Assembly: GCA_964386185.1 (NCBI GenBank)
Contig: CAYLRJ010000003.1
Location: forward strand, 1 to 54,694
DNA: 54,694 nt
Reading direction: 5' to 3'
Source: an uncultured Anaerolineaceae bacterium
GTDB lineage: Bacteria > Chloroflexota > Anaerolineae > Anaerolineales > DRMV01
The translations under genes were made by a program, and so were the position numbers. Within the stretch, counting starts at the first letter, position 1, and the number at the start of each line of letters is the position of its first letter. This document shows, piece by piece, positions 19,350 to 32,035 of this stretch. The notes beneath the pieces were generated by a model. That model had not been told where the DNA came from, ran no database searches, and was given only the letters and a program-made list of their open reading frames with translations.

Positions 19350-20090
19350 TCACGGCGTGGGGGTGGGCGTCACCAAGTTGACGGGCACAATGAGAATTTG
19401 CCCGGCATAGATGGGGTCGGTGGGGCTTTCGAGCGCGTCGTTGGCTTCGACAATGGCATCCACCGTGCTGTTGAATTTGGCTGCAATGGCTTGCAGGGTG
19501 TCGCCAGGCAGCACAAAGTATTGGATTTCATACCCCTTGGGCATGAACGTCGGCAACGGGGTGGGGGTGGGGCGTTTGGTGCTCGGCGCGGGGATGAGGA
19601 TGGTTTGCCCCACATAGAGGGGAGTTTCGTTGTTCATGTTGTTGATGAGCATCAAGGTGATGAGGTCCACCTTGAACTTTTTGGCAATGGTATAGAGGCT
19701 ATCGCCTTCTTCGACGGTATATTCGAAAGGCTCCGAAGGTGTGGGGGTTGGGGTGGTCGTTGCCGTGGGCGTGATGGTGGGCGTGGCCGTGGCCGTGGGG
19801 GTGATGGTTGCGGTGGGTGTGGGCGTCTCAGTGGCCGTAGGCGTTGCCGTGGGTTTGCTGAGCAGGGGGATGCTTTGCCCCTCGCTCATGAAGGCAAAAA
19901 CCAAAACCACGCCGACAACCACAAACACTACAGAAAGCGCGCCCAACAAAAACGGCAGCCAAGCCTGCATGGCAGATTTTTCGCCTTCTGGGGGCGTTTG
20001 AGGCGCAGCTTCGGGCGTGGGGGTTTGCCCAGGGGGAGGCATCGCTTGCGGTTCTTGGGGGGTGGGTGTTCCTTGGGAATCTTCGCTCAT
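19350..20090 (-). CDS. Membrane-anchored protein with a Thr/Pro-rich linker and two LysM domains
   Basis: One TM segment, PT repeats, YTVEEGDSLYTIAKKFKV and YFVLPGDTLQAIAAKFNST; start at MSEDSQ after a GAGGTG SD. Confidence 0.9.
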   Translation of the reverse strand: MSEDSQGTPTPQEPQAMPPPGQTPTPEAAPQTPPEGEKSAMQAWLPFLLGALSVVFVVVGVVLVFAFMSEGQSIPLLSKPTATPTATETPTPTATITPTATATPTITPTATTTPTPTPSEPFEYTVEEGDSLYTIAKKFKVDLITLMLINNMNNETPLYVGQTILIPAPSTKRPTPTPLPTFMPKGYEIQYFVLPGDTLQAIAAKFNSTVDAIVEANDALESPTDPIYAGQILIVPVNLVTPTPTP

Positions 20091-20418
20091 AACACACCTC
20101 GTTGGTGAGAAATGCCAAACCGGGGTCAATGCAGGGGTATTCTACCGCGCTTTCGCGCGTCTTTCTCATTATAACCGTTTCTTGGCGCCCAGAAGGCCGA
20201 TTGGGTGGGGTCGTGTGGGGGGAAAGCGATGGTGAAGGGGCGCGGCCGTGGCGGGGCTTGGCCCGGTGACATTGGGGGGCCAAGGCAGCAAGGGCAGTTT
20301 CCCTGCCCAGCACCAGATGCAGCCCAAAGAGCCTTCCTTTTGGCGCCCCTTGTGGTATAACAAAGAGCAATCCTCGGCGCGGCGGGTGCGCTGCGTGAGA
20401 TATTTCCATAAGGTGGTC

Positions 20419-21363
20419 ATGGCCCTTCTTTCACCGCCCTCTGCGGGGCAGCGTTTTCCGATTTTGGTGACCGGCGCTCACCGGGCAGGCACGACATGGA
20501 TAGGGCGCACGTTGTCGGCCGGTGGTGAAGCCGCGTATATCAACGAGCCTTTGAGCCGCATTCATCGCCCCGGGGTGTTTGGCGCGCAGGTGCCGCAGTG
20601 GTATTTTTATTTGTGCGCCGAAAACGAAGCCCCGTTTTTAGAGCCCTTTCGGCAGATGTTGGCGTTTCGTTACGGATGGGGGCGCGAATTGCGAGCCGTG
20701 CGTTCCCCGCGCGATGTAGCTCGCATGGGGCGTGATGGCTTCCGCTTTGTGTGGGCGCGGCTGAAACATCAGCGCCCTTTGCTCAAAGACCCTTTTGCGG
20801 TGTTTTCGCTGCCCTGGTTTGTGGCGCGTTGGGGGGCGCAGGCCGTGGTGGTGGTGCGGCATCCTGCGGCGGTGGTCAGCAGTTGGCTGCGGCTGGGGTG
20901 GGTGGTGCCGCCGCGGGCTTTGCTTCGTCAGCCTTTGCTGTTGAACCACGTTCTCACAGCCGATGAAATTGCCGCGTTGGAAAGCGCCCAAAGCGCGGCG
21001 CCATTGGTGCAGGCTGCTTTGTTGTGGCGGGTGATTTACCGCGTCGTCGCGGAGTATCGGGCGACAGAGCAAGCCATCGTGGTGCGTCACGAAGATTTGG
21101 CCCTCGCGCCGGTGGAAAGGTTCCGCACCCTCTACGGCGCGTTGGGGCTGCGCTTCACCCCGCGCGTGCAGCGCCTCATCGAGAAAACCACCGGCGGCAA
21201 AGCCGGAGAAACCGACCCAAAACACCCTCACAGGGTACAATTGAATAGCAAGGCCGTGACGCGGGCGTGGCGTCAGCGGCTCGCACCAGAACAAATTGCA
21301 CACATTCGGGCGTTGACCGAACCTGTAGCATCGCAGTTCTATACCGAGGCCGATTGGGCATGA
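20419..21363 (+). CDS. Sulfotransferase family protein
   Basis: PAPS-binding-like ILVTGAHRAGTTW, YINEP, LLKDP, VVRHPAAVVSS, VRHEDL; start set at ATG 20419. Confidence 0.8.
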   Translation: MALLSPPSAGQRFPILVTGAHRAGTTWIGRTLSAGGEAAYINEPLSRIHRPGVFGAQVPQWYFYLCAENEAPFLEPFRQMLAFRYGWGRELRAVRSPRDVARMGRDGFRFVWARLKHQRPLLKDPFAVFSLPWFVARWGAQAVVVVRHPAAVVSSWLRLGWVVPPRALLRQPLLLNHVLTADEIAALESAQSAAPLVQAALLWRVIYRVVAEYRATEQAIVVRHEDLALAPVERFRTLYGALGLRFTPRVQRLIEKTTGGKAGETDPKHPHRVQLNSKAVTRAWRQRLAPEQIAHIRALTEPVASQFYTEADWA

Positions 21364-21388: not shown

Positions 21389-22372
21389 ATGACACACCGT
21401 TGGCGAGAACTTTTGTTTCGCCCCCCTTCGTTGGAAGATCTCATCGGGGTGTTGCGCGCCTGGCGCTGGTGGGTGTTGATGGGCTTATTGGGCGCCCTCT
21501 TGGGCGCGGTGGCCTTTTGGGTGACGCCCTCGCCTTATCGCGCCAGGGCCGAAGTTGTGGTGGACTACAATTTGGAAGAAGCCGTGCCGGCCGGTACAGA
21601 CCGGCAGTTGTTCTACTTCTTGGGGCGAGAGAACAAAAAATTGCGAGATTTGGCTTTTAGCGATGCTGTGCTCGGCCAAATGGCGCAAACTTTGGGGGAG
21701 CCCGTGGACCCCGCCTGGCGCACAGGGGTGTTGTTGTTGCGCGAGGAAAAGGATGGCGCGTGGCATTTTTGGGCTGAGGCTTCCACGCCTGCACGGGCTC
21801 AGGCCCTGGCCGCGGCTTGGGCGCAGGCTTTTGTGCAGGTCGCACAGGAAAAAATCAGCGTAGCACGGCGGATTCAGAGCCTTTGGGAAGGCATCTTTGC
21901 CTTGCGCAAACAGCAAGCCGCGCTGGAAAACGGTTGCGCAGTGGCTGCCCAAGCCTTGGAAGTGTTGCCGCAGTGGCAACCACCTACCACGCCCTGGGAA
22001 GCCTGGCGCCTCGAAGAGGTTTTGGCATGGTTAGACCAAAGCGGGCTGCCCCTGCCACTGACCACCGAAGGCACGCTGGGCCCTGATGCCATTCAGACCG
22101 CAGAGGCCGTCGCGCGGGATCGTTTGGCCCAATGCGAGCAAGTAAAACCCCAGTTGATTCAGCAAGAGCAGCGCCTGCAAACCCAGTTAGACGCGCTCAT
22201 GCCCCAAAGCGGCGGCCTTTCGCCCCGCACAGAAGTGGTGCTTTCGCAAACTCAAAATCTGCCGGTGCAGCGTGTGGCCTCGCGCACTGCGTTCATCTTA
22301 GCTGGCGCGCTGCTGGGCGTGTTGGTGGCCTTTTTGCTGGGGCTGTTTTGGGGAGGGCAGCGTGATGCGTAA
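21389..22372 (+). CDS. Wzz-like polysaccharide chain-length regulator / co-polymerase-like membrane protein
   Basis: N- and C-terminal TM segments around a coiled region; begins DLIGVLRAWRWWVLMG; Y.ARAEVVV. Confidence 0.6.
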   Translation: MTHRWRELLFRPPSLEDLIGVLRAWRWWVLMGLLGALLGAVAFWVTPSPYRARAEVVVDYNLEEAVPAGTDRQLFYFLGRENKKLRDLAFSDAVLGQMAQTLGEPVDPAWRTGVLLLREEKDGAWHFWAEASTPARAQALAAAWAQAFVQVAQEKISVARRIQSLWEGIFALRKQQAALENGCAVAAQALEVLPQWQPPTTPWEAWRLEEVLAWLDQSGLPLPLTTEGTLGPDAIQTAEAVARDRLAQCEQVKPQLIQQEQRLQTQLDALMPQSGGLSPRTEVVLSQTQNLPVQRVASRTAFILAGALLGVLVAFLLGLFWGGQRDA

Positions 22373-23768
22373 ACCCTCAGTGCAAACGATAGCCCGTGGG
22401 CTATGGGCTTTGGTGATGCTGACTTTGCCCATCACCAGTTTTCGTTATTACCCCCACATTTTCGGCACCACGCAAGTCAAACCTTTGGCCTTTTTGCCTT
22501 TGGCTGCCTATTTGCCTTTGGGGCTGTGGCTGGCGTGGCGGGAACGCCGCTGGCGTTGGCTGGGCGCGTTAGTGCCCTTGGTGGCCTTTGGCTTGGCTGC
22601 CTTGTTGAGCACGGTGTGGGGCTGGGTGCATAGCCCATTGCCCTTGTTTGGCATTGGCTATCTGGGGCGCACCCTGCGAGCCTGGATTAGTTTTGGGGTG
22701 GGCTTGAGTTTCTTTTTGGGCGCGCTATTGGCCCATCGCAACGAAGAAGACATTCGCTGGAGCCTGCAATGGCTGTATGCGGGGTTTGTGGTAGCGGCGC
22801 TTTGGGGCACGTTGCAGGTTTTGGCCATCAAGGTGTATCGTCCTTTGTGGCCGGTGTTGAATCGGGCGCAAAAGCTGTTTTCCATTCAGGGGATGATGCC
22901 GCGCCGTATCTCGGGCATGGCTTATGAGCCTTCCTGGTTTGCCGACCAGTTGGTGAGTTTGTATTTGCCTTGGTTGGTGGCGGCTTTGTTGAGTGGTTAT
23001 GCGCTGTTTCGGCGCTGGTGGTGGACGGCATTGTTGTTGGCCTGGGCGGGCATTTTGTTGGTGTTTACCTATTCTCGCAGTGGTGTGTTGGTCGCGGTGG
23101 GCGCGGCTGGGGCTGTGGTTGTGTTGGGCGCGCTGCGTTGGGGTGGGCAGCGCTTAAAAGCCGAGACCTTGGCGCGGGCCTGGCGGCGGAGTTTGGCGGC
23201 CATCGCCGTGGCCGCGTTGTTGGTGTTGGTGGGTGGGGCGGTGTTGATGCAAAATTCTTATTTCGCCAGCCTCTTCCAGCGCAAGCCAGGCCAAAGTTGG
23301 GTGGATTATTTCGTCAGCGCCCGCAGCGGAGCCCGCTTGGCGTATGCTTGGGCGGCTATGGCCTCGTTTGACCGTTCGCCCTGGTTGGGTGTGGGTTTGG
23401 GGGCCAGCGGCTTCAATCTCTACGCCGATTTGCCCGAATGGTCGGCTACGCTGCCCGAAATTGCTCGCTATACCAGCCCTTATTACCACGTCTTCCCCAA
23501 CCCGAAAAATATGTACATCCGTTTGCTGGCCGAGACGGGCATGGTGGGTTTTTTGACATTTTTGGGTTTTGTTTTGTATGTCTTGGGGCAAGCGTTGGCC
23601 TGGTGGCGGGCGGAGACGCCGTACGCGCGTTTTATGGGCATGGCCGGCGTGTGGATTTTGGCCGCGGTGGTGCTGCGCTGGTTTACGCAGGATTCATTGG
23701 CCATGCCCAACGTTTGGCTGGGGTTGGGCATGATGTTGGGGCCAATGATGGAACGGCACGGCGAGTAG
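22365..23768 (+). CDS. O-antigen ligase/Wzy-like polytopic membrane protein
   Basis: About 12 TM segments; RISGMAYEPSW, LVFTYSRSG, SPWLGVGLG, NPKNMYIRLLAETGMVG. Confidence 0.8.
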   Translation: MRKPSVQTIARGLWALVMLTLPITSFRYYPHIFGTTQVKPLAFLPLAAYLPLGLWLAWRERRWRWLGALVPLVAFGLAALLSTVWGWVHSPLPLFGIGYLGRTLRAWISFGVGLSFFLGALLAHRNEEDIRWSLQWLYAGFVVAALWGTLQVLAIKVYRPLWPVLNRAQKLFSIQGMMPRRISGMAYEPSWFADQLVSLYLPWLVAALLSGYALFRRWWWTALLLAWAGILLVFTYSRSGVLVAVGAAGAVVVLGALRWGGQRLKAETLARAWRRSLAAIAVAALLVLVGGAVLMQNSYFASLFQRKPGQSWVDYFVSARSGARLAYAWAAMASFDRSPWLGVGLGASGFNLYADLPEWSATLPEIARYTSPYYHVFPNPKNMYIRLLAETGMVGFLTFLGFVLYVLGQALAWWRAETPYARFMGMAGVWILAAVVLRWFTQDSLAMPNVWLGLGMMLGPMMERHGE

Positions 23769-24030
23769 CCTGGTTTGCCCTGGGTGGTCTGCGCGGCCTG
23801 GGGGCTTTCACGCTTTCGTCTTTGGGCTGGGGAAGCAGGCGCGCGCCCTGGCGGGTTCCTGGCGCGGGGCGCGCGTGGGTTTTGCGGCCAGGGTGAAGAG
23901 GCGGCAAAGCGGGCAGCCGTGCCCGAGGCTCTCGCAGCCAGGTGAGGGGATGAATTATGGGGGCGCTGAACGTTGCAATTTGACCATGATTTTCAAACGA
24001 AACTTTTATGCAAAAGAAAAGTGGCTTCAT

Positions 24031-24036
24031 TATAAT
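24031..24036 (+). promoter_or_regulatory. -10 box in the AT-rich region upstream of the SipW operon
   Basis: TATAAT about 64 bp upstream of ATG 24100; -35 is weak (TATGCA-like). Confidence 0.5.
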
Positions 24037-24099
24037 TTTGCGCAGAATTGCTTTGGAAGCGTTCCGATTTTTCCTGCATCCTTTTGTTGGAGGTCCCCC

Positions 24100-24504
24100 A
24101 TGCGTCGCAAGTCCCGTATTATTTTCTTGGTTGTTATTTTGGCATTGTTGGCCGTGTTGGCCTATGGTTTTGCCGCCCAAAACACGGTGGATAGCTCCTA
24201 CGCCGGTGATGGTTGGGCGGGAGTGAGTGGTTACTACGTCAAAAACATTCAATACACCCTTGACAGCGCTGACCCCAGCCTGGTAGCCAGTGTGAGTTTT
24301 TCCTTGCAAGACAGCGCTGGCAATGATTTGCCTGCGACGACCGTCTATGCTGCGGTGGCTGACGACAACGCCGGCACGCCGGGCACGTGGACTTGGTCTA
24401 ACGCATGCACCCAAGACGCGACCACGCTGGTGTGGTCGTGCAGTTGGGGCACCGAGCCCGCTGTGGTCAACATCTACTATTTCCGGGTATCCGCCGGGCA
24501 GTAA
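24100..24504 (+). CDS. Secreted protein (134 aa), candidate SipW-processed fibre subunit
   Basis: GGAGG SD; basic and hydrophobic N-terminus ending AYGFAAQNTV; beta-rich mature part with two Cys. Confidence 0.75.
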   Translation: MRRKSRIIFLVVILALLAVLAYGFAAQNTVDSSYAGDGWAGVSGYYVKNIQYTLDSADPSLVASVSFSLQDSAGNDLPATTVYAAVADDNAGTPGTWTWSNACTQDATTLVWSCSWGTEPAVVNIYYFRVSAGQ

Positions 24505-24547
24505 CGAGCCTGACTACATTGACGCAAACATTGACGGCGGATTGAAA

Positions 24548-24576
24548 AAGGCGCGGCGGAAGCCGCGCCTTGCTTT
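24548..24576 (+). terminator. Intra-operon hairpin (partial terminator or mRNA stabiliser)
   Basis: AAGGCGCGGC-GGAA-GCCGCGCCTT followed by a weak T tract. Confidence 0.55.
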
Positions 24577-24593
24577 GTGTGAGGATAGGCTCG

Positions 24594-26792
24594 ATGGGCT
24601 GGAAGCGCCGCCTACAGTGGCTGAGTGTGTTGGTGCTGTTGGCCGTGGCCGGGGTGGTGTTGGCCCCTGCTCGGTTGGGCGGCGACATGTACTACGTCAT
24701 GCTCACCGGCCCCAGCATGGAGCCCCATTTCCACCTGGGCGATTTGGTGTTGGTGCGGCGGGCAGCCTTTTATCAGCCCGGCGATATTGTGCTCTATCGG
24801 CACCCGGAAATTGGCTACGTCTTCCATCGCATCATTGGTTTTGATGTGCACGGCCGCTATCGCTTGCAAGGCGATAACAACACCTGGGAAGACCCCTACC
24901 ATCCAACCCAAGATGACATCTTGGGAAAATTTGTGTTGCGAATTCCCAAAGCCGGCAAGATTTTGCAAACCGCCCGCCAGCCGTGGGTGATTGCCCTGCT
25001 GGTGGTTTTGCTGGGGTGGCTTCTCCTCTCCATCCCTGAAGATGCCACCCAAGATGAACTGGGAAGGTTCCCCATGTTGCAGAACGATACGCTCAAAGAT
25101 TGGTTGTTGGTTTGGGCTGCTTTTTTGCTGGCGGCTCTGGTGTTGGGCTTGGTCGCGTGGACGCGGCCTGCGACGGTCCAGGTTCAGGAGCCCCTCCCTT
25201 ACCAACAAGTGGTGGATTTTTCCTACACCGCGCGGGCCCCGCAAGGCTTGTATGACCAGCCCCAGGTGCAGCCGGGTGAGCCCATTTTCACGGAGCTCAT
25301 CGGGACCCTGACCGTCTCTGCCCATTACGGCTGGCAGGCTGAGGTGCCCTATCGGGTGCAAGGCACCTATCAGGTGTTGGCGCGGGTCAGCGACAATACC
25401 GGCTGGAAGCGCACCGTGCCCCTCACGCCAGTGACTGCCTTCGAGCAGGGGTTTGACGTCCAAAACACGGTGGATTTGCAAACGTTCAAAGACTTCGTGC
25501 AAATCATGGAAGATGAGACCGGTGTGCGTCACAACCTTTACACCCTTTCGGTGGTGATTCATGTCAACGCGCAGGGCACGGTAGGCCACTTCCCTGTGCG
25601 GGTGGTGGCGGACCCCGCGTTGAACTTCCAGTGGGACGGGCGGGCGCTGGTGCTTCTTGCCCCCAGCAATGGCCCCGGCCAGCCCAAAGCCGACCCTTTG
25701 CACTGGGTGCACGAAGGGGTGGTTGTGCAAGAGACAACCCAGGTCAACCGTTTGACCCTTTTGGGGCTGGATGTGCCCGTGCCGTTGGCCCGTCAGGTTT
25801 CGGTGGGCGTGGGTGGGTTGGCGTTGGTGCTGCTGTTGCTGACCTGGTGGCTGGCCGAGCGTCGCGCGGCGGTGGACCCTGTGGCCCGTCTGCAGTGGGC
25901 GTTTGACGTGGCGGTGATTCCGGTTGAAATGATGCCGCGGGTGGAGCAGCCGTGGGTGCCGGTGGCCCAACCGGATGATTTGGGCAAGCTGGCTGTTTTG
26001 CAGCGTTTGCCGATCTTTGTCTGGCAGGAACACGGCCAGCAGCGGCTGTGGGTCCAGACGGGAGAGGCGGCGTTTTATTACGAAACTGGTGCGCTTGTGC
26101 CCGCGTGGCTGCGCTCGGTGGTGTCGTTGCCTGCGCGGCGGGGGCGGAGCCGCCGTGGCGCTTTGCCCTGCGAGCGGCTTTTGGAAGGCTGGGCTCAAGC
26201 GGTGGATGCTCAAAGCGTTGGCGACCCCGCACACTCTCGGCGGGTCGCGGCTTTGGCCGTGGCTCTGGGGCGGTTGATGGGCTTGCCAGAGGCCACCTTG
26301 GCCGATTTGCGCCGCGCAGCTTTGATTCATGGTTTGGGGCTCATGAGCCTTCCTGAAGAACTCGCCCGCAAGCCCGACGCCCTGAACAAACAAGAGCGGA
26401 CTTTGTTGCAAGCGCATCTCCAATATCTGGAAACGCACCTGGCTACTTTGGATGACCTGCGCCCTGCCCTGCGCATTGCCTACTACCATCATGAACGCTG
26501 GGACGGCAGCGGCTATCCGCAGGGTTTGAGTGGCGAAGACATCCCGCTTGAGGCGCGCATTTTGGCGGTGGCCGACGTTTGGGATTCCCTGCGCCATCCA
26601 CGCCCTTATCGTTCGGCTTGGCCTTTCCAGACGGTGCGGCAGTTTATGCAGCAAAAGGCCGGCATTTGGTTTGACCCCCAAGTGGTGGATGCACTGCTCA
26701 CGCTCTTGAAAGACGAACACGACGAGCAGTTGCTTTGGCAGCCTGTCGAAGCGGAGGTATCCCATGAGGAGATGGCGTCGTTGGAGGCGTAA
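24594..26792 (+). CDS. Fusion of an S26 SipW-type signal peptidase, a DUF5305-like domain and a degenerate HD-GYP domain
   Basis: GPSMEP (Ser), VFHRII (His), QGDNN; four TM segments; HHERWDGSGYPQGLSGEDIPLEARILAVADVWD; HD is replaced by HG (ALIHGLG). Confidence 0.8.
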   Translation: MGWKRRLQWLSVLVLLAVAGVVLAPARLGGDMYYVMLTGPSMEPHFHLGDLVLVRRAAFYQPGDIVLYRHPEIGYVFHRIIGFDVHGRYRLQGDNNTWEDPYHPTQDDILGKFVLRIPKAGKILQTARQPWVIALLVVLLGWLLLSIPEDATQDELGRFPMLQNDTLKDWLLVWAAFLLAALVLGLVAWTRPATVQVQEPLPYQQVVDFSYTARAPQGLYDQPQVQPGEPIFTELIGTLTVSAHYGWQAEVPYRVQGTYQVLARVSDNTGWKRTVPLTPVTAFEQGFDVQNTVDLQTFKDFVQIMEDETGVRHNLYTLSVVIHVNAQGTVGHFPVRVVADPALNFQWDGRALVLLAPSNGPGQPKADPLHWVHEGVVVQETTQVNRLTLLGLDVPVPLARQVSVGVGGLALVLLLLTWWLAERRAAVDPVARLQWAFDVAVIPVEMMPRVEQPWVPVAQPDDLGKLAVLQRLPIFVWQEHGQQRLWVQTGEAAFYYETGALVPAWLRSVVSLPARRGRSRRGALPCERLLEGWAQAVDAQSVGDPAHSRRVAALAVALGRLMGLPEATLADLRRAALIHGLGLMSLPEELARKPDALNKQERTLLQAHLQYLETHLATLDDLRPALRIAYYHHERWDGSGYPQGLSGEDIPLEARILAVADVWDSLRHPRPYRSAWPFQTVRQFMQQKAGIWFDPQVVDALLTLLKDEHDEQLLWQPVEAEVSHEEMASLEA

Positions 26793-27276
26793 AGCGCGGT
26801 GGTGGGTGGTGTTGGCGGTGTTGGGGTTGTGGGCTGTCAGCGTGACGGCATACAGCGCCCAAAACAGTGTGCCCCCCACGCGGTTAGACGACCAGGTGCA
26901 AGGGGTTTCTTTGCAGCAGTTTGTGCCCCCGGAATGCGCGGGCATCGTGATTGAAAACATCATTGTTGCAGGAAGCGGACGGCGTTGGGTGTATGGCACC
27001 GACGGCAATGATTTGATTTTGGGTAACGATCGGGTCAATCGCATTGACGGCCTGGGCGGCGATGACTGCATCGTAGGCGGCGCGGGCAGCGAAGGCTGGT
27101 GGCTGTGGGGCATCATCCCGCTGGCGGCTTATTTGCGCGGCGGCGATGGCAACGACGTCATCTTGGGCGGCGCTGGGAACGACATCATCCTCGGCGATGC
27201 AGGCACAGACGTCATCTACGGGGGCACGGGCACCGATTATTGCGATGGGGAAGTAACTTATGAATGCGAGTGGTGA
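26764..27276 (+). CDS. Secreted protein with hemolysin/RTX-type Ca-binding glycine repeats
   Basis: Signal ending TAYSAQNSV; GGDGNDVIL, GGAGNDIIL, GDAGTDVIY, GGTGTDYC repeats; GGAGGT SD. Confidence 0.8.
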   Translation: MRRWRRWRRKARWWVVLAVLGLWAVSVTAYSAQNSVPPTRLDDQVQGVSLQQFVPPECAGIVIENIIVAGSGRRWVYGTDGNDLILGNDRVNRIDGLGGDDCIVGGAGSEGWWLWGIIPLAAYLRGGDGNDVILGGAGNDIILGDAGTDVIYGGTGTDYCDGEVTYECEW

Positions 27277-27316
27277 GGGGCGCTAAAGCACCTTGGCGCC
27301 CCGCTTCTGGGGGCGC

Positions 27317-27345
27317 TTGACACTCACGCTGCTTGCCGTTATAGT
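27317..27345 (+). promoter_or_regulatory. Sigma70-type promoter of the GT2-HAD unit
   Basis: TTGACA, 17 bp spacer, TATAGT. Confidence 0.75.
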
Positions 27346-27412
27346 TAGGCCGCCGCGTAACCTTTCGGAGCGGCCTGTGTTGTCGTGTGTGAAACGCGTG
27401 AGGAGCCCATCC

Positions 27413-28135
27413 ATGAGCGAAGCCAACGCTTCCCTAAAGCCCTATACCGTGACCGTGGTCGTGCCTGCGTATAACGAGCAACAGACCATTCGCGAAATCC
27501 TTCAGCACGTCGCCGCCACAGGCGTGCCCGATGAGATCATCGTGGTGGACGACGGCTCTACCGATGGCACGCGAGAAATTTTGGCCGCCTTAGAGGCCGA
27601 GGGGGAGATTCCCAACCTGCGGGTGTTTTATCACGATCATAACCAGGGCAAAGGCGCCGCGCTGCGGACGGGCTTTCAGCATGCAACGGGCGACATCATC
27701 ATCATCCAAGACGCCGATTTGGAATACGACCCGCGCCATTACCCCCAATTGCTCAAGCCCATCGAAGAGGGGTTGGCCGACGTGGTCTATGGCTCTCGCT
27801 TCCTGGGCGCACCGCGGCGACCCATTTTGTTTTGGAACATGGTGGCCAACAAAATTTTGACCTTGATTACCAACATCCTCTACAACACCATCTTGTCAGA
27901 TATGGAAACAGGCTACAAAGTGTTCAAACGAGAAGTGGTCGCCGAAATGCCCTTGCACGCCCGCAGCTTTGATTTTGAGCCCGAGTTTACGGCCAAGGTG
28001 CTCAAACGAGGGTATCGCATCTTCGAAGTGCCCATTGCCTTCAACCCCCGCGACTATACCGAAGGGAAGAAAATCAAGGCCAAAGACGGCCTGATTGCCT
28101 TGTGGACTTTAATCAAATATCGTTTTGTGGATTGA
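27413..28135 (+). CDS. Glycosyltransferase family 2 (polyprenol-phosphate mannose synthase-like)
   Basis: [47 protein letters not shown]. Confidence 0.92.
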
Positions 28136-29071: not shown

Positions 29072-29214
29072 GCCATACCGCTTGTGGCGGCTTCCTGCGG
29101 GGCATCTTGGCTGTGCATAACCCGAAACCCATAGGATGTTGTATAATAGAAATATCCTAATCCTTCCCATTCGCTGAATGGGTAACTTGAAAGTTTTTCG
29201 TGAGGAGGAACGAG

Positions 29215-29910
29215 ATGGATTTCGGTAAGGCTTTTTCTTTCGTTTTCGAAGATGATGGCTGGATTTCCAAACTGGTGATTGGCGGCCTTCTTTTGTTGAT
29301 CCCAATTGTTGGCGCATTGGTCGTGTTAGGGTGGGCGTTGGAAATTGGCCGCCGCGTGGCTTCGGGGCAAGAAAGCGACATCTTGCCCGATTGGAGCGAT
29401 TTTGGTACCTATTTGGTGCGGGGTCTCAAAGCTTTTGTGGTGATGTTTGTGTACGCGCTGCCCGTCATCATTTTGGAAAGCTGCCCGGTGGCCTTGGCAG
29501 CGTTGGCTTCAGGCACCGACAGTCAGAGCTTGGCCTCGCTTGCTCAGGCCATCAACTTGTTCGTGTATTGCATTGTCTTCGTGTATGAGATTTTCCTGCT
29601 CTTCATTGCCCCTGCAGCCTTGATGCGCTTCACCATGCAAGGCGACGACATCAAAGCCGGCTTGGCCTTTGGCGAAATCTTGGGCTTGGTCAAGGCCAAC
29701 GTGGGTGTGTATTTGATGGTGGTTTTGGGGCAAATTGTGGCTTATTTCGTGGGCGGCTTGGGCATCGTTGCCTGCGTGATTGGCCTGCTCTTCACCATTC
29801 CGTATGCTTACGCTGTGGTGGGCCACTTCTACGGCCAAGCCTATCGTGAGGTGGAAGGCGGCAACATTGTGAACGGCACCGCTGCCCCCGCTGGCGACTG
29901 GGTCGGCTAA
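29215..29910 (+). CDS. DUF4013-like membrane protein
   Basis: MDFGKAFSFVFEDDGWISKLVIGGLLLLIPIVG...LPDWSDFG...GLK pattern. Confidence 0.8.
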   Translation: MDFGKAFSFVFEDDGWISKLVIGGLLLLIPIVGALVVLGWALEIGRRVASGQESDILPDWSDFGTYLVRGLKAFVVMFVYALPVIILESCPVALAALASGTDSQSLASLAQAINLFVYCIVFVYEIFLLFIAPAALMRFTMQGDDIKAGLAFGEILGLVKANVGVYLMVVLGQIVAYFVGGLGIVACVIGLLFTIPYAYAVVGHFYGQAYREVEGGNIVNGTAAPAGDWVG

Positions 29911-30691: not shown

Positions 30692-30720
30692 AAAACCGGC
30701 CTGAGCCCAGGCCGGTTTTT
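30692..30720 (+). terminator. Intrinsic terminator after rplI
   Basis: AAAACCGGCCTG-AGCC-CAGGCCGGTTTTT. Confidence 0.75.
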
Positions 30721-30727
30721 GCCTCTT

Positions 30728-32035
30728 ATGCCCTCTCAAATCGGTTTGTCTTTGCGAAAAGCCCGTCTGGCGCGTGGCCTCACGTTGGAACAGGCCGCTC
30801 GGGCTGTGCACATTAAGGCGCATTATCTCCAGGCTTTAGAAGAAGAGCGCTGGGAGAATCTGCCCTCGCGCGCGCAAGGACGGGGCTTTTTGCGTTTATA
30901 TGCCGATTTTTTGGGGTTAGATGCCGGCGCTTTGCTGCAGGCTTGGCCGACGCAGGCCGCAGCCCCGCCTGCCTCGGAGCCGGCCGAACCACCCAAGGCT
31001 GACGCGCCCGCCTCGGCCCCTGAGGCCCCTCAACCCACAGACGCAGCCGCCCCCGCTCCTTCCCCCCCGCCCGACCCCGCGCGCCCCATCTTCCTGGAAA
31101 TTGGCCGCACCTTCCGCCAGCAGCGCGAACAATTGGGGCTGGCCTTGGAAGAAGTGGAGCGCTACACCCACGTCAAACGCCACTACCTCCAAGCCATCGA
31201 AGACGGCCGTTTAGACGACCTCCCTTCGCCTGTACAAGGGCGGGGGATGTTGCTGCACTATGCGCGTTTTTTGCAGCTGGACCCAGAACCGCTGCTTTTG
31301 CAATTTGCCGAAGCCCTGCAAGCCCGCCATCGGCAGCGGCAGGCCCCACCTCAGAAGCGAAGGGTGGGGGTCAACGGCACCTGGTTGCGCAAAGCCCAAG
31401 CCTTCTTTGCCGATCGGCTGCTGGTTTGGCTGGTGGTGTTGATCCTGGTGGCCGTGGTGGGCGTTGGGGGGTGGCAGGTGGTTCGGGCCACACGCGCGCA
31501 ACCCGTTCAGCCCACGCCGCCCAACGTCATGGATGTGCTTTTCCCGTCGCCTACGCTTTCCCCAACGCCGGTGCCGCCCACGGCCACGCCCACCCCGCCG
31601 GTGCCCGGCCTGGCGCCGCCAGGCGGCGAACAGCCTGCCCCCGCAACAAACGAGCCGAACCAAGTGCCGCAGACCAACGCCCCCGTTCAGGTGTTTTTCG
31701 TGGCGCAACATCGCGCCTGGGTGCGTGTGATTGCCGATGGCGAAACCGTCTTTCAGGGGCTGGTTGTGCCGGGCGCTTCGTACAACTATACCGCACAGAC
31801 CCGTTTGGAACTCCTCACCGGCGACGGCAGCGCCCTCCAAGTGATTTACAATCAGCAAAATTTGGGGCTGCTTGGGCGTCTGGGCGAAGTGGTGGATCGG
31901 GTGTTTACCCCTCTGGGCGTCCAAACGCCAACGCCAACGGTGACCCCCACCCCGACAATTACCCCGACCCCCACCATAACCCCCACCCCGACCGTGACGC
32001 CCTCGCCGACGGCCACGGTAGGCACATTGCCGTAA
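30728..32035 (+). CDS. RodZ-like protein with two N-terminal HTH domains, a TM segment and a DUF4115-like domain
   Basis: Two LRKARLARGLTLE/FRQQREQLGLALE...YLQALE...RGFLRLYA-type repeats; AWVRVIADGETVFQG; lies before rimO. Confidence 0.8.
   Translation: MPSQIGLSLRKARLARGLTLEQAARAVHIKAHYLQALEEERWENLPSRAQGRGFLRLYADFLGLDAGALLQAWPTQAAAPPASEPAEPPKADAPASAPEAPQPTDAAAPAPSPPPDPARPIFLEIGRTFRQQREQLGLALEEVERYTHVKRHYLQAIEDGRLDDLPSPVQGRGMLLHYARFLQLDPEPLLLQFAEALQARHRQRQAPPQKRRVGVNGTWLRKAQAFFADRLLVWLVVLILVAVVGVGGWQVVRATRAQPVQPTPPNVMDVLFPSPTLSPTPVPPTATPTPPVPGLAPPGGEQPAPATNEPNQVPQTNAPVQVFFVAQHRAWVRVIADGETVFQGLVVPGASYNYTAQTRLELLTGDGSALQVIYNQQNLGLLGRLGEVVDRVFTPLGVQTPTPTVTPTPTITPTPTITPTPTVTPSPTATVGTLP

Follow-up and report, generated by a model that had tools for sequence, protein, structure and literature searches.

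A conserved three-gene cassette in Chloroflexota suggests a dedicated signal peptidase for candidate surface fiber or matrix proteins

We analyzed a 54,694-nucleotide (nt) stretch of DNA from an uncultured Anaerolineaceae bacterium (assembly GCA_964386185.1, contig CAYLRJ010000003.1), referred to below as the window, and focused on three genes at 24100–27276, here called g1, g2, and g3. An earlier note made from the sequence had described them as three co-oriented genes encoding a secreted protein of 134 amino acid residues, a signal peptidase fusion, and a secreted protein with RTX repeats, and all three were confirmed as co-oriented open reading frames (ORFs) on the + strand. The peptidase gene, g2, also encodes a cytoplasmic HD-GYP domain, which was absent from that description. 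We present the cassette as a probable module of a dedicated signal peptidase and its two substrates, and weigh whether the substrates form a surface fiber or matrix.

The coding region of g1 extends from 24100 to 24504 (+). Its start codon, an ATG at 24100, is preceded by GGAGG (24089–24093) with a 6-nt spacer, and the position of the initial Met was common to 12/12 close homologs. The 159-nt region upstream of g1 (23941–24099, +) had a GC content of 42.8% compared with 60.4% for the whole window, included one of the two 150-nt stretches with the lowest GC in the window, and contained a perfect TATAAT at 24031–24036. Because a scan for consensus sigma-70 promoters made no call in 23941–24099, promoter function is a putative assignment; of the AT-rich promoter region claimed in the earlier note, the AT-richness was confirmed and the promoter was not. 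In the gap between g1 and g2, a terminator-like stem-loop was found at 24548–24571 (+), with 10 pairs, eight of them G–C, and a T-rich tail (GCTTTGTGTG). A terminator-like hairpin was located 3′ of g1 in 28/82 related loci, compared with 2.2% of random windows, and in 12/16 loci of the clade whose g2 carries HD-GYP. The likely start of g2 is the ATG at 24594, preceded by GAGGA with an 8-nt spacer, and the gene ends at 26792, giving 732 residues; the mechanical ORF starts earlier, at a TTG at 24570, and comprises 740 residues. The third gene, g3 (26764–27276, +), starts within g2 with an overlap of 29 nt and has its own GGAGG (26753–26757) placed 6 nt before the ATG. An ORF of 834 residues lies antisense to g2 (24612–27116, −); we suspect that it arises as a side effect of G+C-rich coding sequence and did not treat it as a gene.

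The product of g1 is the proposed major subunit. It combines a basic n-region with a hydrophobic helix (residues 3–26) and was divided into a signal helix (residues 1–25; 24100–24174, +), an invariant N-terminal extension (residues 26–45, AQNTVDSSYAGDG...VSGY; 24175–24234, +), and a predicted seven-strand beta-sandwich (residues 46–134). The AlphaFold2 model, with a predicted local distance difference test score (pLDDT) of 91.4, contained a helix at residues 3–26, an unstructured segment at 27–45, and the seven-strand beta-sandwich at 46–133. The mature protein is strongly acidic, with a computed isoelectric point (pI) of about 4.05, and has two conserved Cys residues. An exhaustive profile search yielded 1424 cluster representatives at E<=0.001 and 673 at E<=1e-10, which sets the family size at no less than 1424 clusters at 50% identity, with nearly all lengths between 115 and 145 residues. 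The family consensus was ...AYGFAA.NTVP.S.AGDG.G.ISGYTV.N..YTL...DP..I..V.F.L...C...W.C...LRVVA.Q. In an alignment of 142 members, conservation was 3.02 bits per column for residues 23–45, 2.67 for the C-terminal strand, and 1.70 for the sandwich core. N28 was kept in 99% of these members, Thr29 was Thr in 82% of the members registered in the logo described below, and the last residue, Gln134 (24499–24501), was Gln in at least 90% of 13 close homologs. In Pfam and NCBIfam, g1 itself had no match and the 142 diverse family members had only scattered chance-level matches; a sequence-profile search of PDB with g1 gave no relevant relative, and cluster look-ups of diverse members returned only the name "hypothetical protein".

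Two to four tandem g1 paralogs were found in loci L015, L021, L029, L044, L047, L056, L066, and L071; in L021 (5027–6360) and L056 (4900–6300), three or four of them stand upstream of a single g2. Asn28 and Thr29 of g1 are encoded at 24181–24186, and Lys is not conserved in g1. Covalent cross-links have been reported for some other surface filaments; to imagine one between g1 subunits, such as a Thr–Gln ester or an Asn-based bond, is pure speculation.

The product of g2 (24594–26792, +) is a membrane protein that joins a signal peptidase with a DUF5305-like module and a domain of the HD-GYP type. TIGR02228, the model for signal peptidase I of the archaeal/endoplasmic reticulum (ER) type, matched residues 11–155 of the 740-residue ORF with 72.8 bits against a cut-off of 51.85, and the SipW equivalog NF046067 gave 42.1 bits, below its cut-off of 190. 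The peptidase domain (24600–25034, +) contains Ser41 in GPSMEP (24708–24725), His78-Arg79 in FHRI (24822–24833), and GDNN (24870–24881). Among the g2 homologs, Ser41 was kept in 37/38, His78-Arg79 in 38/38, and the columns of Ser41, His-Arg, and GDNN each in 37–38 of the 38. The conservation of these residues indicates that g2 is a Ser/His enzyme, with His and not Lys, of the SipW/TafD kind (S26B), which bears out the SipW/archaeal-type assignment of the earlier note.

Hydropathy analysis of g2 revealed four hydrophobic segments, at residues 10–28, 130–148, 170–195, and 398–420. With this topology, the peptidase would lie outside the cell together with a second domain of about 200 residues, and residues 421–732 would lie inside. 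The second outer domain, between hydrophobic segments 3 and 4 (25119–25880, +), matched a hidden Markov model (HMM) built from homologs. PF17231 (DUF5305) gave no match to g2 of the window, its middle region included, even at E<=10; the g2 homologs P0019, P0028, and P0025 matched with 34.5, 38.0, and 31.3 bits, respectively, above the 29-bit gathering cut-off, and P0019 shares 50% identity with g2 over 96% of the query. The DUF5305 identity named in the earlier note thus appears only indirectly right, since it is transitive, via near-full-length homologs. Of the HMM checks proposed there, TIGR02228 matched g2, DUF5305 was reached through homologs only, and TIGR04088 did not match g1 of the window.

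The HD-GYP domain of g2 lies at 26232–26684 (+; PF13487, E=2.3e-39, 135 bits). Alignment with canonical HD-GYP proteins showed that the HD motif reads IHGLGL (26325–26342), with Gly in place of Asp, so that the dyad reads HG, and that HHERWDGSGYP (26487–26519) is intact; the closest relatives of g2 also lack HHE and read RTE or RSE. Loss of the Asp of the HD dyad should abolish HD-GYP catalysis. The domain, probably catalytically inactive to judge from these residues, was therefore treated as a probable sensor. When the C-terminal architecture of g2 was compared among 81 cassettes, 51 proteins ended after the DUF5305 module, 16 continued into an HD-GYP domain, and 14 continued into an EAL domain at the same position. 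Both HD and HHE were retained in the HD-GYP copies of L010, L013, L036, L041, and L066, and the other copies had HG, HK, or HA, and RTE or QHE instead of HHE. In the nine displayed EAL copies, EAL/EAF, Asn, and K-I-D were kept, DDFGTG was changed to D[N/E]F[A/S], and EGVE was changed to QGVE, or to KGIE in L002. Motif searches of all 15 EAL copies found DDFG in none of them and AEGVE in three (L062 twice and L070), and did not find the Asn or K-I-D motif in a few. The occurrence of two unrelated folds specific for c-di-GMP (cyclic dimeric guanosine monophosphate) at one position, with repeated loss of catalytic residues, suggests that c-di-GMP is the ligand and that these domains sense it rather than turn it over. 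A fusion of HD-GYP or EAL to a signal peptidase was not found described in the literature searched.

A related arrangement was observed in L085 (4469–9323; metagenomic, taxon unknown), in which a divergent g1 (AYAFTASNT...) is followed by a g2-like gene of 590 residues with no phosphodiesterase-type domain and no g3, and a separate GGDEF-HD-GYP protein is encoded two genes downstream of the g2-like gene. The link to c-di-GMP may be supplied in trans at this locus, which also gives a hint that the g1 family reaches past the motif variant found in Chloroflexota.

The g3 protein, the proposed minor subunit, consists of 170 residues with four Cys and is composed of a signal helix (residues 1–31), an N-terminal extension (residues 32–49), and a predicted Ca2+-binding RTX beta-roll (residues 60–170), the repeats of which matched PF00353 with E=1.2e-14. 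Its AlphaFold2 model (pLDDT 90.2) contained a helix at residues 2–33, an unstructured segment at 34–49, and then the beta-roll, the same layout as in g1. Foldseek with g3 returned almost solely RTX beta-rolls and other Ca2+-dependent beta-helix repeat proteins, among them 5cvw with a root-mean-square deviation of 1.4 over 86 columns. The g3 family comprised 681 matches with the consensus ...TA.AA.NTVP.TR......LKPPECAG...; RTX blocks and conserved Cys come next. Mature g3 is as acidic as g1 (computed pI about 4.05) and has conserved Cys pairs; the acidity of both mature proteins and the Cys pairs are consistent with an extracytoplasmic location.

Comparison of the g1 and g3 families by hhalign aligned 44 N-terminal columns with a probability of 97.7% and E=1e-12, and left the rest unaligned. 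A-x-N-[TS]-V-P is common to the N-terminal extensions of g3 and g1, and a logo of both families registered on the Asn read [G/A]-x-A-A-x-N-T-V-P-x-[S/T], the Asn being the anchor of the pattern and therefore present in every matched member by construction. The two proteins thus have a homologous N-terminal module attached to unrelated folded domains, a small beta-sandwich and an RTX beta-roll, respectively. A homologous signal-peptide/N-terminal module is expected of two substrates of one dedicated peptidase. Under the small-x-small rule, the likeliest cut would be after [G/A]-x-A, leaving A-x-N-T-V-P as the new N-terminus. Two metagenomic proteins of 615–617 residues, P0262 and P0401, connect the families in a single chain. 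Each starts like g1, in signal, N-terminal segment, and domain, and goes on to another g1-like domain and g3-like RTX blocks; the conserved N-terminal segment is present at their true N-terminus only.

Several other export or assembly routes were considered and rejected. Both g1 and g3 start with Arg-Arg, which brought twin-arginine translocation (Tat) to mind, and the Arg pair was not conserved in homologs. Type I secretion of g3 was rejected on the grounds of its N-terminal signal-like helix and of the lack of type I secretion genes around the cassette, both in the window and in the loci examined. Type IV pilins were rejected because the conserved motif follows the hydrophobic helix rather than preceding it and the adjacent peptidase is of the S26 type. 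The chaperone-usher route was rejected because there is no chaperone or usher gene and no significant fold match.

To obtain the distribution of the cassette, one genome per species was scanned with the exact g1 peptide pattern YGFAAxNTV only, which was taken from an alignment of 20 sequences, and the loci were annotated with custom-built HMMs. The scan yielded 78 loci, all of them by title from Chloroflexota or from a taxon taken to belong to it, except L015, which is titled "bacterium"; since only the exact pattern was scanned for, this result is a lower bound on the distribution and is silent on other phyla. The carriers included Anaerolineales, Chloroflexia, Tepidiforma (including the isolate T. 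flava), Kouleothrix, Thermobaculum, and Nitrolancea. A gene for the peptidase-DUF5305 protein lay directly 3′ of g1 on the same strand in all loci apart from L022 and the loci truncated by a contig end. An ORF of the g3 family directly followed g2 in 72/81 cassettes; six of the others were at a contig edge and three had no g3, so that the trio was kept in 72/75 assessable cassettes, and the lack of co-conservation that the earlier note had named as refuting its proposal was clearly not seen. The g1-g2-g3 order was kept in about 75 species-level genomes with unrelated flanks, and look-ups that started from g2 homologs found the trio again beside ribosomal, transporter, redox, or other unrelated genes. 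L062 (1520–8867) contains two complete g1-g2(EAL)-g3 cassettes in tandem, which argues for dedicated pairs and not for a housekeeping peptidase. Outside Chloroflexota, a g2-like gene of Actinomycetales (L084) was located at a contig end with its upstream side missing.

The exopolysaccharide genes that flank the cassette in the window were common only to its nearest relative, L006, and are not counted as part of the system. Upstream are genes for a sulfotransferase (20248–21363) and a Wzy/O-antigen-ligase-like protein (22362–23768), with a gene between them (21389–22372) that had no family match and is suspected to be chain-length-determinant-like; downstream is a gene for a family-2 glycosyltransferase (27293–28135). 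A LysM gene abuts g1 in L001 (about 250 nt), and LysM matches were found about 700 nt upstream in L008 and L009, so that the upstream trio may be an insertion between a LysM gene and the cassette. In the window, LysM-like motifs were seen by eye in the protein encoded at 19350–20129 (−), and the protein encoded at 30719–32035 (+) appeared RodZ-like by eye; in both, long linkers are made of Thr-Pro repeats (TPTPT...ITPTPT). Besides the region upstream of g1, a second stretch of the window (29111–29280, 38.7% GC) was strongly AT-rich; it is located immediately upstream of a gene for a DUF4013 membrane protein (29200–29910) and extends over the start of that gene.

We favor, by a modest degree of confidence, the reading of the cassette as a dedicated-signal-peptidase module for a surface fiber or matrix; it would be akin to the TasA/Tafi systems, have new subunits, and possibly receive c-di-GMP as an input. 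Its parts differ in strength: that g2 and its neighbors form a dedicated peptidase-substrate module is quite probable, and that the subunits assemble into a fiber by strand donation stands, by analogy with known systems, at about even chances. The AT-rich region of its own upstream of g1, the terminator-like hairpin after it, and the tandem paralogs elsewhere make g1 look like an abundant, major subunit, and the overlap with g2, which would couple it translationally to the peptidase gene, makes g3 look like a minor partner, both in line with the roles proposed in the earlier note. According to this model, g1 and g3 would be exported by the general secretory (Sec) pathway with an unusual common N-terminal module, and g2 would most likely cut both after [G/A]-x-A, exposing A-x-N-T-V-P-x-[S/T]... 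as the N-terminus. The exposed segment of g1, which is its most conserved part and is unstructured in the monomer model, would act as a donor strand inserted into the beta-sandwich of the next g1, beside the C-terminal strand. In g3, the same N-terminal segment is joined to a Ca2+-binding beta-roll that would replace the acceptor domain, and g3 could fill the putative groove of the terminal g1 as a nucleator, cap, anchor, or adhesin, like TapA for TasA. The HD-GYP domain of g2, without the Asp of the HD dyad, may sense c-di-GMP and so tie the maturation of the subunits to this second messenger. A bolder form of this model, in which g1 represents a new fold class of self-assembling, strand-donating fiber subunits widespread in Chloroflexota and signal-peptide cleavage is switched on or off by c-di-GMP bound to the catalytically degenerate HD-GYP or EAL domain of the peptidase, so as to free the subunits from their membrane anchor for polymerization, seems doubtful to us. 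If it were true, the c-di-GMP-gated g2 would be the first second-messenger-controlled signal peptidase and would place LapD/LapG-like inside-out signaling within a processing enzyme.

A number of observations weigh against the fiber reading. It rests on analogy, polymerization itself being inferred, and the relatives of known fiber subunits did not appear in our searches: PF12389 and DUF1102 matched 0/142 members of the g1 family, and TIGR04088, which describes the SipW-cognate signal peptide, did not match g1 of the window and matched one of the 142 members with E=0.0017. Foldseek with g1 against PDB returned only generic immunoglobulin (Ig)/FN3/CBM21-like sandwiches, with a best E of 0.055, and TasA, AbpA, Tafi, thread, and chaperone-usher pilins were not among the 50 matches listed. 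The remark in the earlier note that the subunits do not look like TasA was accordingly upheld by both sequence and fold. The proposed donor segment of g1 is Gly-rich (AGDG.G..SG) and not obviously amphipathic, g3 is absent from three cassettes, and 51/81 cassettes are without any c-di-GMP-type domain. Because the predicted cleavage site conforms to the usual small-x-small rule, it might be cut by a housekeeping peptidase as well.

The main rival to the fiber reading is dedicated maturation without polymerization, in which g1 and g3 would be monomeric surface or secreted proteins, such as a coat protein or adhesin with its Ca2+-binding partner, and A-x-N-T-V-P would be a recognition or sorting signal. 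Co-conservation and the common N-terminal module are explained equally well by such maturation, g1 is structurally unlike known strand-donating pilins, and the 615-residue P0262 has a g1-like domain and RTX blocks in one chain, like a conventional multidomain adhesin. A recognition motif alone, however, does not explain the approximately 20 conserved residues past the cleavage site together with the conserved C-terminal strand, nor are the tandem g1 paralogs and the signals of major-subunit stoichiometry explained, and the experimentally studied systems of the SipW/TafD type in the literature searched, TasA and Tafi, are filaments (PMC11821415, PMC12337348, PMC10151520). We therefore regard this rival as fairly unlikely.

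The c-di-GMP-type domains admit a different emphasis, in which the cassette is a signaling module, g2 is primarily a transmembrane c-di-GMP phosphodiesterase or receptor, and its outer domains, the peptidase and the DUF5305-like module, sense or process g1 and g3 as extracellular ligands, so that regulated proteolysis would feed second-messenger control. In agreement with this proposal, 30/81 cassettes have one of two folds of the c-di-GMP phosphodiesterase type, HD-GYP or EAL, fused at the same position. Also consistent with it are the GGDEF-HD-GYP gene two genes downstream of the domain-less g2-like gene in L085 and the precedent of LapD/LapG for c-di-GMP-coupled proteolysis of an RTX surface protein (PMC3032545, PMC3032553). 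On the other hand, the 51/81 cassettes without such a domain retain g1, g2, and g3, so that the core function is independent of it; moreover, catalytic residues are lost in the window and in many relatives, and the features of g1 are those of an abundant structural protein, which makes a signaling module improbable. Least probable is that the adjacency has no dedicated meaning and that g2 is a general signal peptidase next to ordinary Sec substrates or uncleaved signal-anchored proteins. The predicted cleavage region does fit the generic small-x-small rule, but this view has to account for the maintenance of the g1-g2-g3 order amid unrelated flanks across species, for the two tandem cassettes of L062, and for a homologous N-terminal module in g1 and g3 that generic signal peptides would not be expected to have.

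Sediments, hot springs, soils, and wastewater sludge harbor abundant Chloroflexota, many of which are filamentous and help to structure flocs and biofilms. No paper describing matrix or surface proteins of Chloroflexota was found in the literature searched, and the cassette is a compact and widely conserved candidate for such a structure. If g1 polymerizes, the principle of a dedicated peptidase combined with strand donation would extend to a fold not detectably related to the TasA superfamily. That HD-GYP or EAL is repeatedly found fused to the peptidase offers a directly testable link between c-di-GMP and the maturation of proteins at the membrane, and cultured carriers exist, including Tepidiforma flava YIM 72310 (locus L044).

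Like the cassette, the tapA-sipW-tasA operon of Bacillus subtilis combines the gene for a dedicated Ser/His peptidase of the ER/archaeal type with genes for a major secreted subunit and a minor partner. Mature TasA starts with A-F-N-D-I after W-A, which resembles A-x-N-T-V after F-A in g1. The N-terminal strand of TasA mediates its polymerization, and the filament is started by TapA, whose N-terminal strand is donated to TasA (PMC10151520); g1 and g3 likewise have a common N-terminal segment. The gene for the minor partner overlaps the peptidase gene in both cases, tapA with sipW (PMC10151520) and g3 with g2. The two differ in that TasA has a TasA/camelysin jelly-roll of about 200 residues whereas g1 has a beta-sandwich of 89 residues, TapA has an Ig-fold whereas g3 has an RTX beta-roll, and g2, unlike SipW, is fused to a DUF5305-like module and HD-GYP.

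The Tafi pili of haloarchaea and euryarchaea are similar in other respects. In Haloarcula, deletion of the dedicated signal peptidase TafD left the pilin TafA unprocessed and abolished the Tafi pili; TafD has catalytic residues including a His-Arg pair, four membrane spans, and two outside domains, and TafG, a DUF5305 protein encoded alongside it, is proposed to assist TafD (PMC11821415). The structure of Natrinema Tafi revealed assembly by strand donation (PMC12337348). A peptidase with four spans, predicted in the case of g2, and two outside domains, together with a DUF5305 protein or DUF5305-like module, is common to both systems, and small beta-rich subunits cut by a dedicated peptidase and, in Tafi, assembled by strand donation correspond to what is proposed here (PMC11821415, PMC12337348). 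In contrast to Tafi, the peptidase and the DUF5305-like module form one polypeptide in g2, often extended by HD-GYP or EAL; Tafi export is of the Tat type whereas that of g1 and g3 would be of the Sec type; g1 has no sequence match to the DUF1102 or TafE families of Tafi subunits; and the cassette has three genes, without the TafB regulator or TafC/TafF, whereas Tafi loci have five to seven.

A preprint on AbpX placed TasA, AbpA, AbpX, Tafi, threads, and cannulae in one superfamily (bioRxiv 10.64898/2026.01.04.697558). It termed DUF5305 a signal-peptidase accessory subunit, gave E8MZY1 of Anaerolinea thermophila as a peptidase-DUF5305 fusion, and reported HD-GYP and diguanylate cyclase genes near bacterial AbpX-type loci (10.64898/2026.01.04.697558). 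AbpX-type loci are like the cassette in their acidic secreted subunits, dedicated signal peptidase, DUF5305-type accessory, and role for calcium. They are unlike it in that their peptidases are described with ten membrane helices, compared with four hydrophobic segments in g2, and in that their subunit is a jelly-roll of about 160 residues; the calcium-binding element of the cassette is a separate RTX protein.

In LapD/LapG, a degenerate cytoplasmic c-di-GMP receptor controls the extracytoplasmic N-terminal cleavage of an RTX adhesin (PMC3032545, PMC3032553). The likeness to the cassette, which lies in a degenerate cytoplasmic domain of the c-di-GMP type on a membrane protein, N-terminal extracytoplasmic proteolysis, and an RTX surface protein, is an analogy only. 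The GGDEF-EAL receptor LapD is separate from the cysteine protease LapG, and LapA is a giant adhesin exported by type I secretion, whereas the cassette has its putative sensor fused to a signal peptidase, which would act on small substrates predicted to be Sec-exported. Chaperone-usher pili follow the principle proposed here, in which the N-terminal extension of one subunit completes the Ig-like fold of its neighbor by pairing with the C-terminal strand; they differ from the cassette in that the latter has no chaperone or usher gene and g1 has no significant fold match.

The earlier note had regarded the system as undescribed. The g1 family, the mini-RTX partner g3 with its g1-like N-terminus, and, as stated above, the fusion of HD-GYP or EAL to the peptidase were not found in the literature searched, and to that extent the claim holds. 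It does not hold for the combination of DUF5305 with a dedicated peptidase, which is a studied archaeal pilus module, and fusions of the two were already noted, in passing, in Anaerolinea (bioRxiv 10.64898/2026.01.04.697558) and in a few bacteria including the Chloroflexota genus Tepidiforma (PMC11821415). In view of the Tafi and TasA precedents, the cassette therefore follows a logic of a kind already known.

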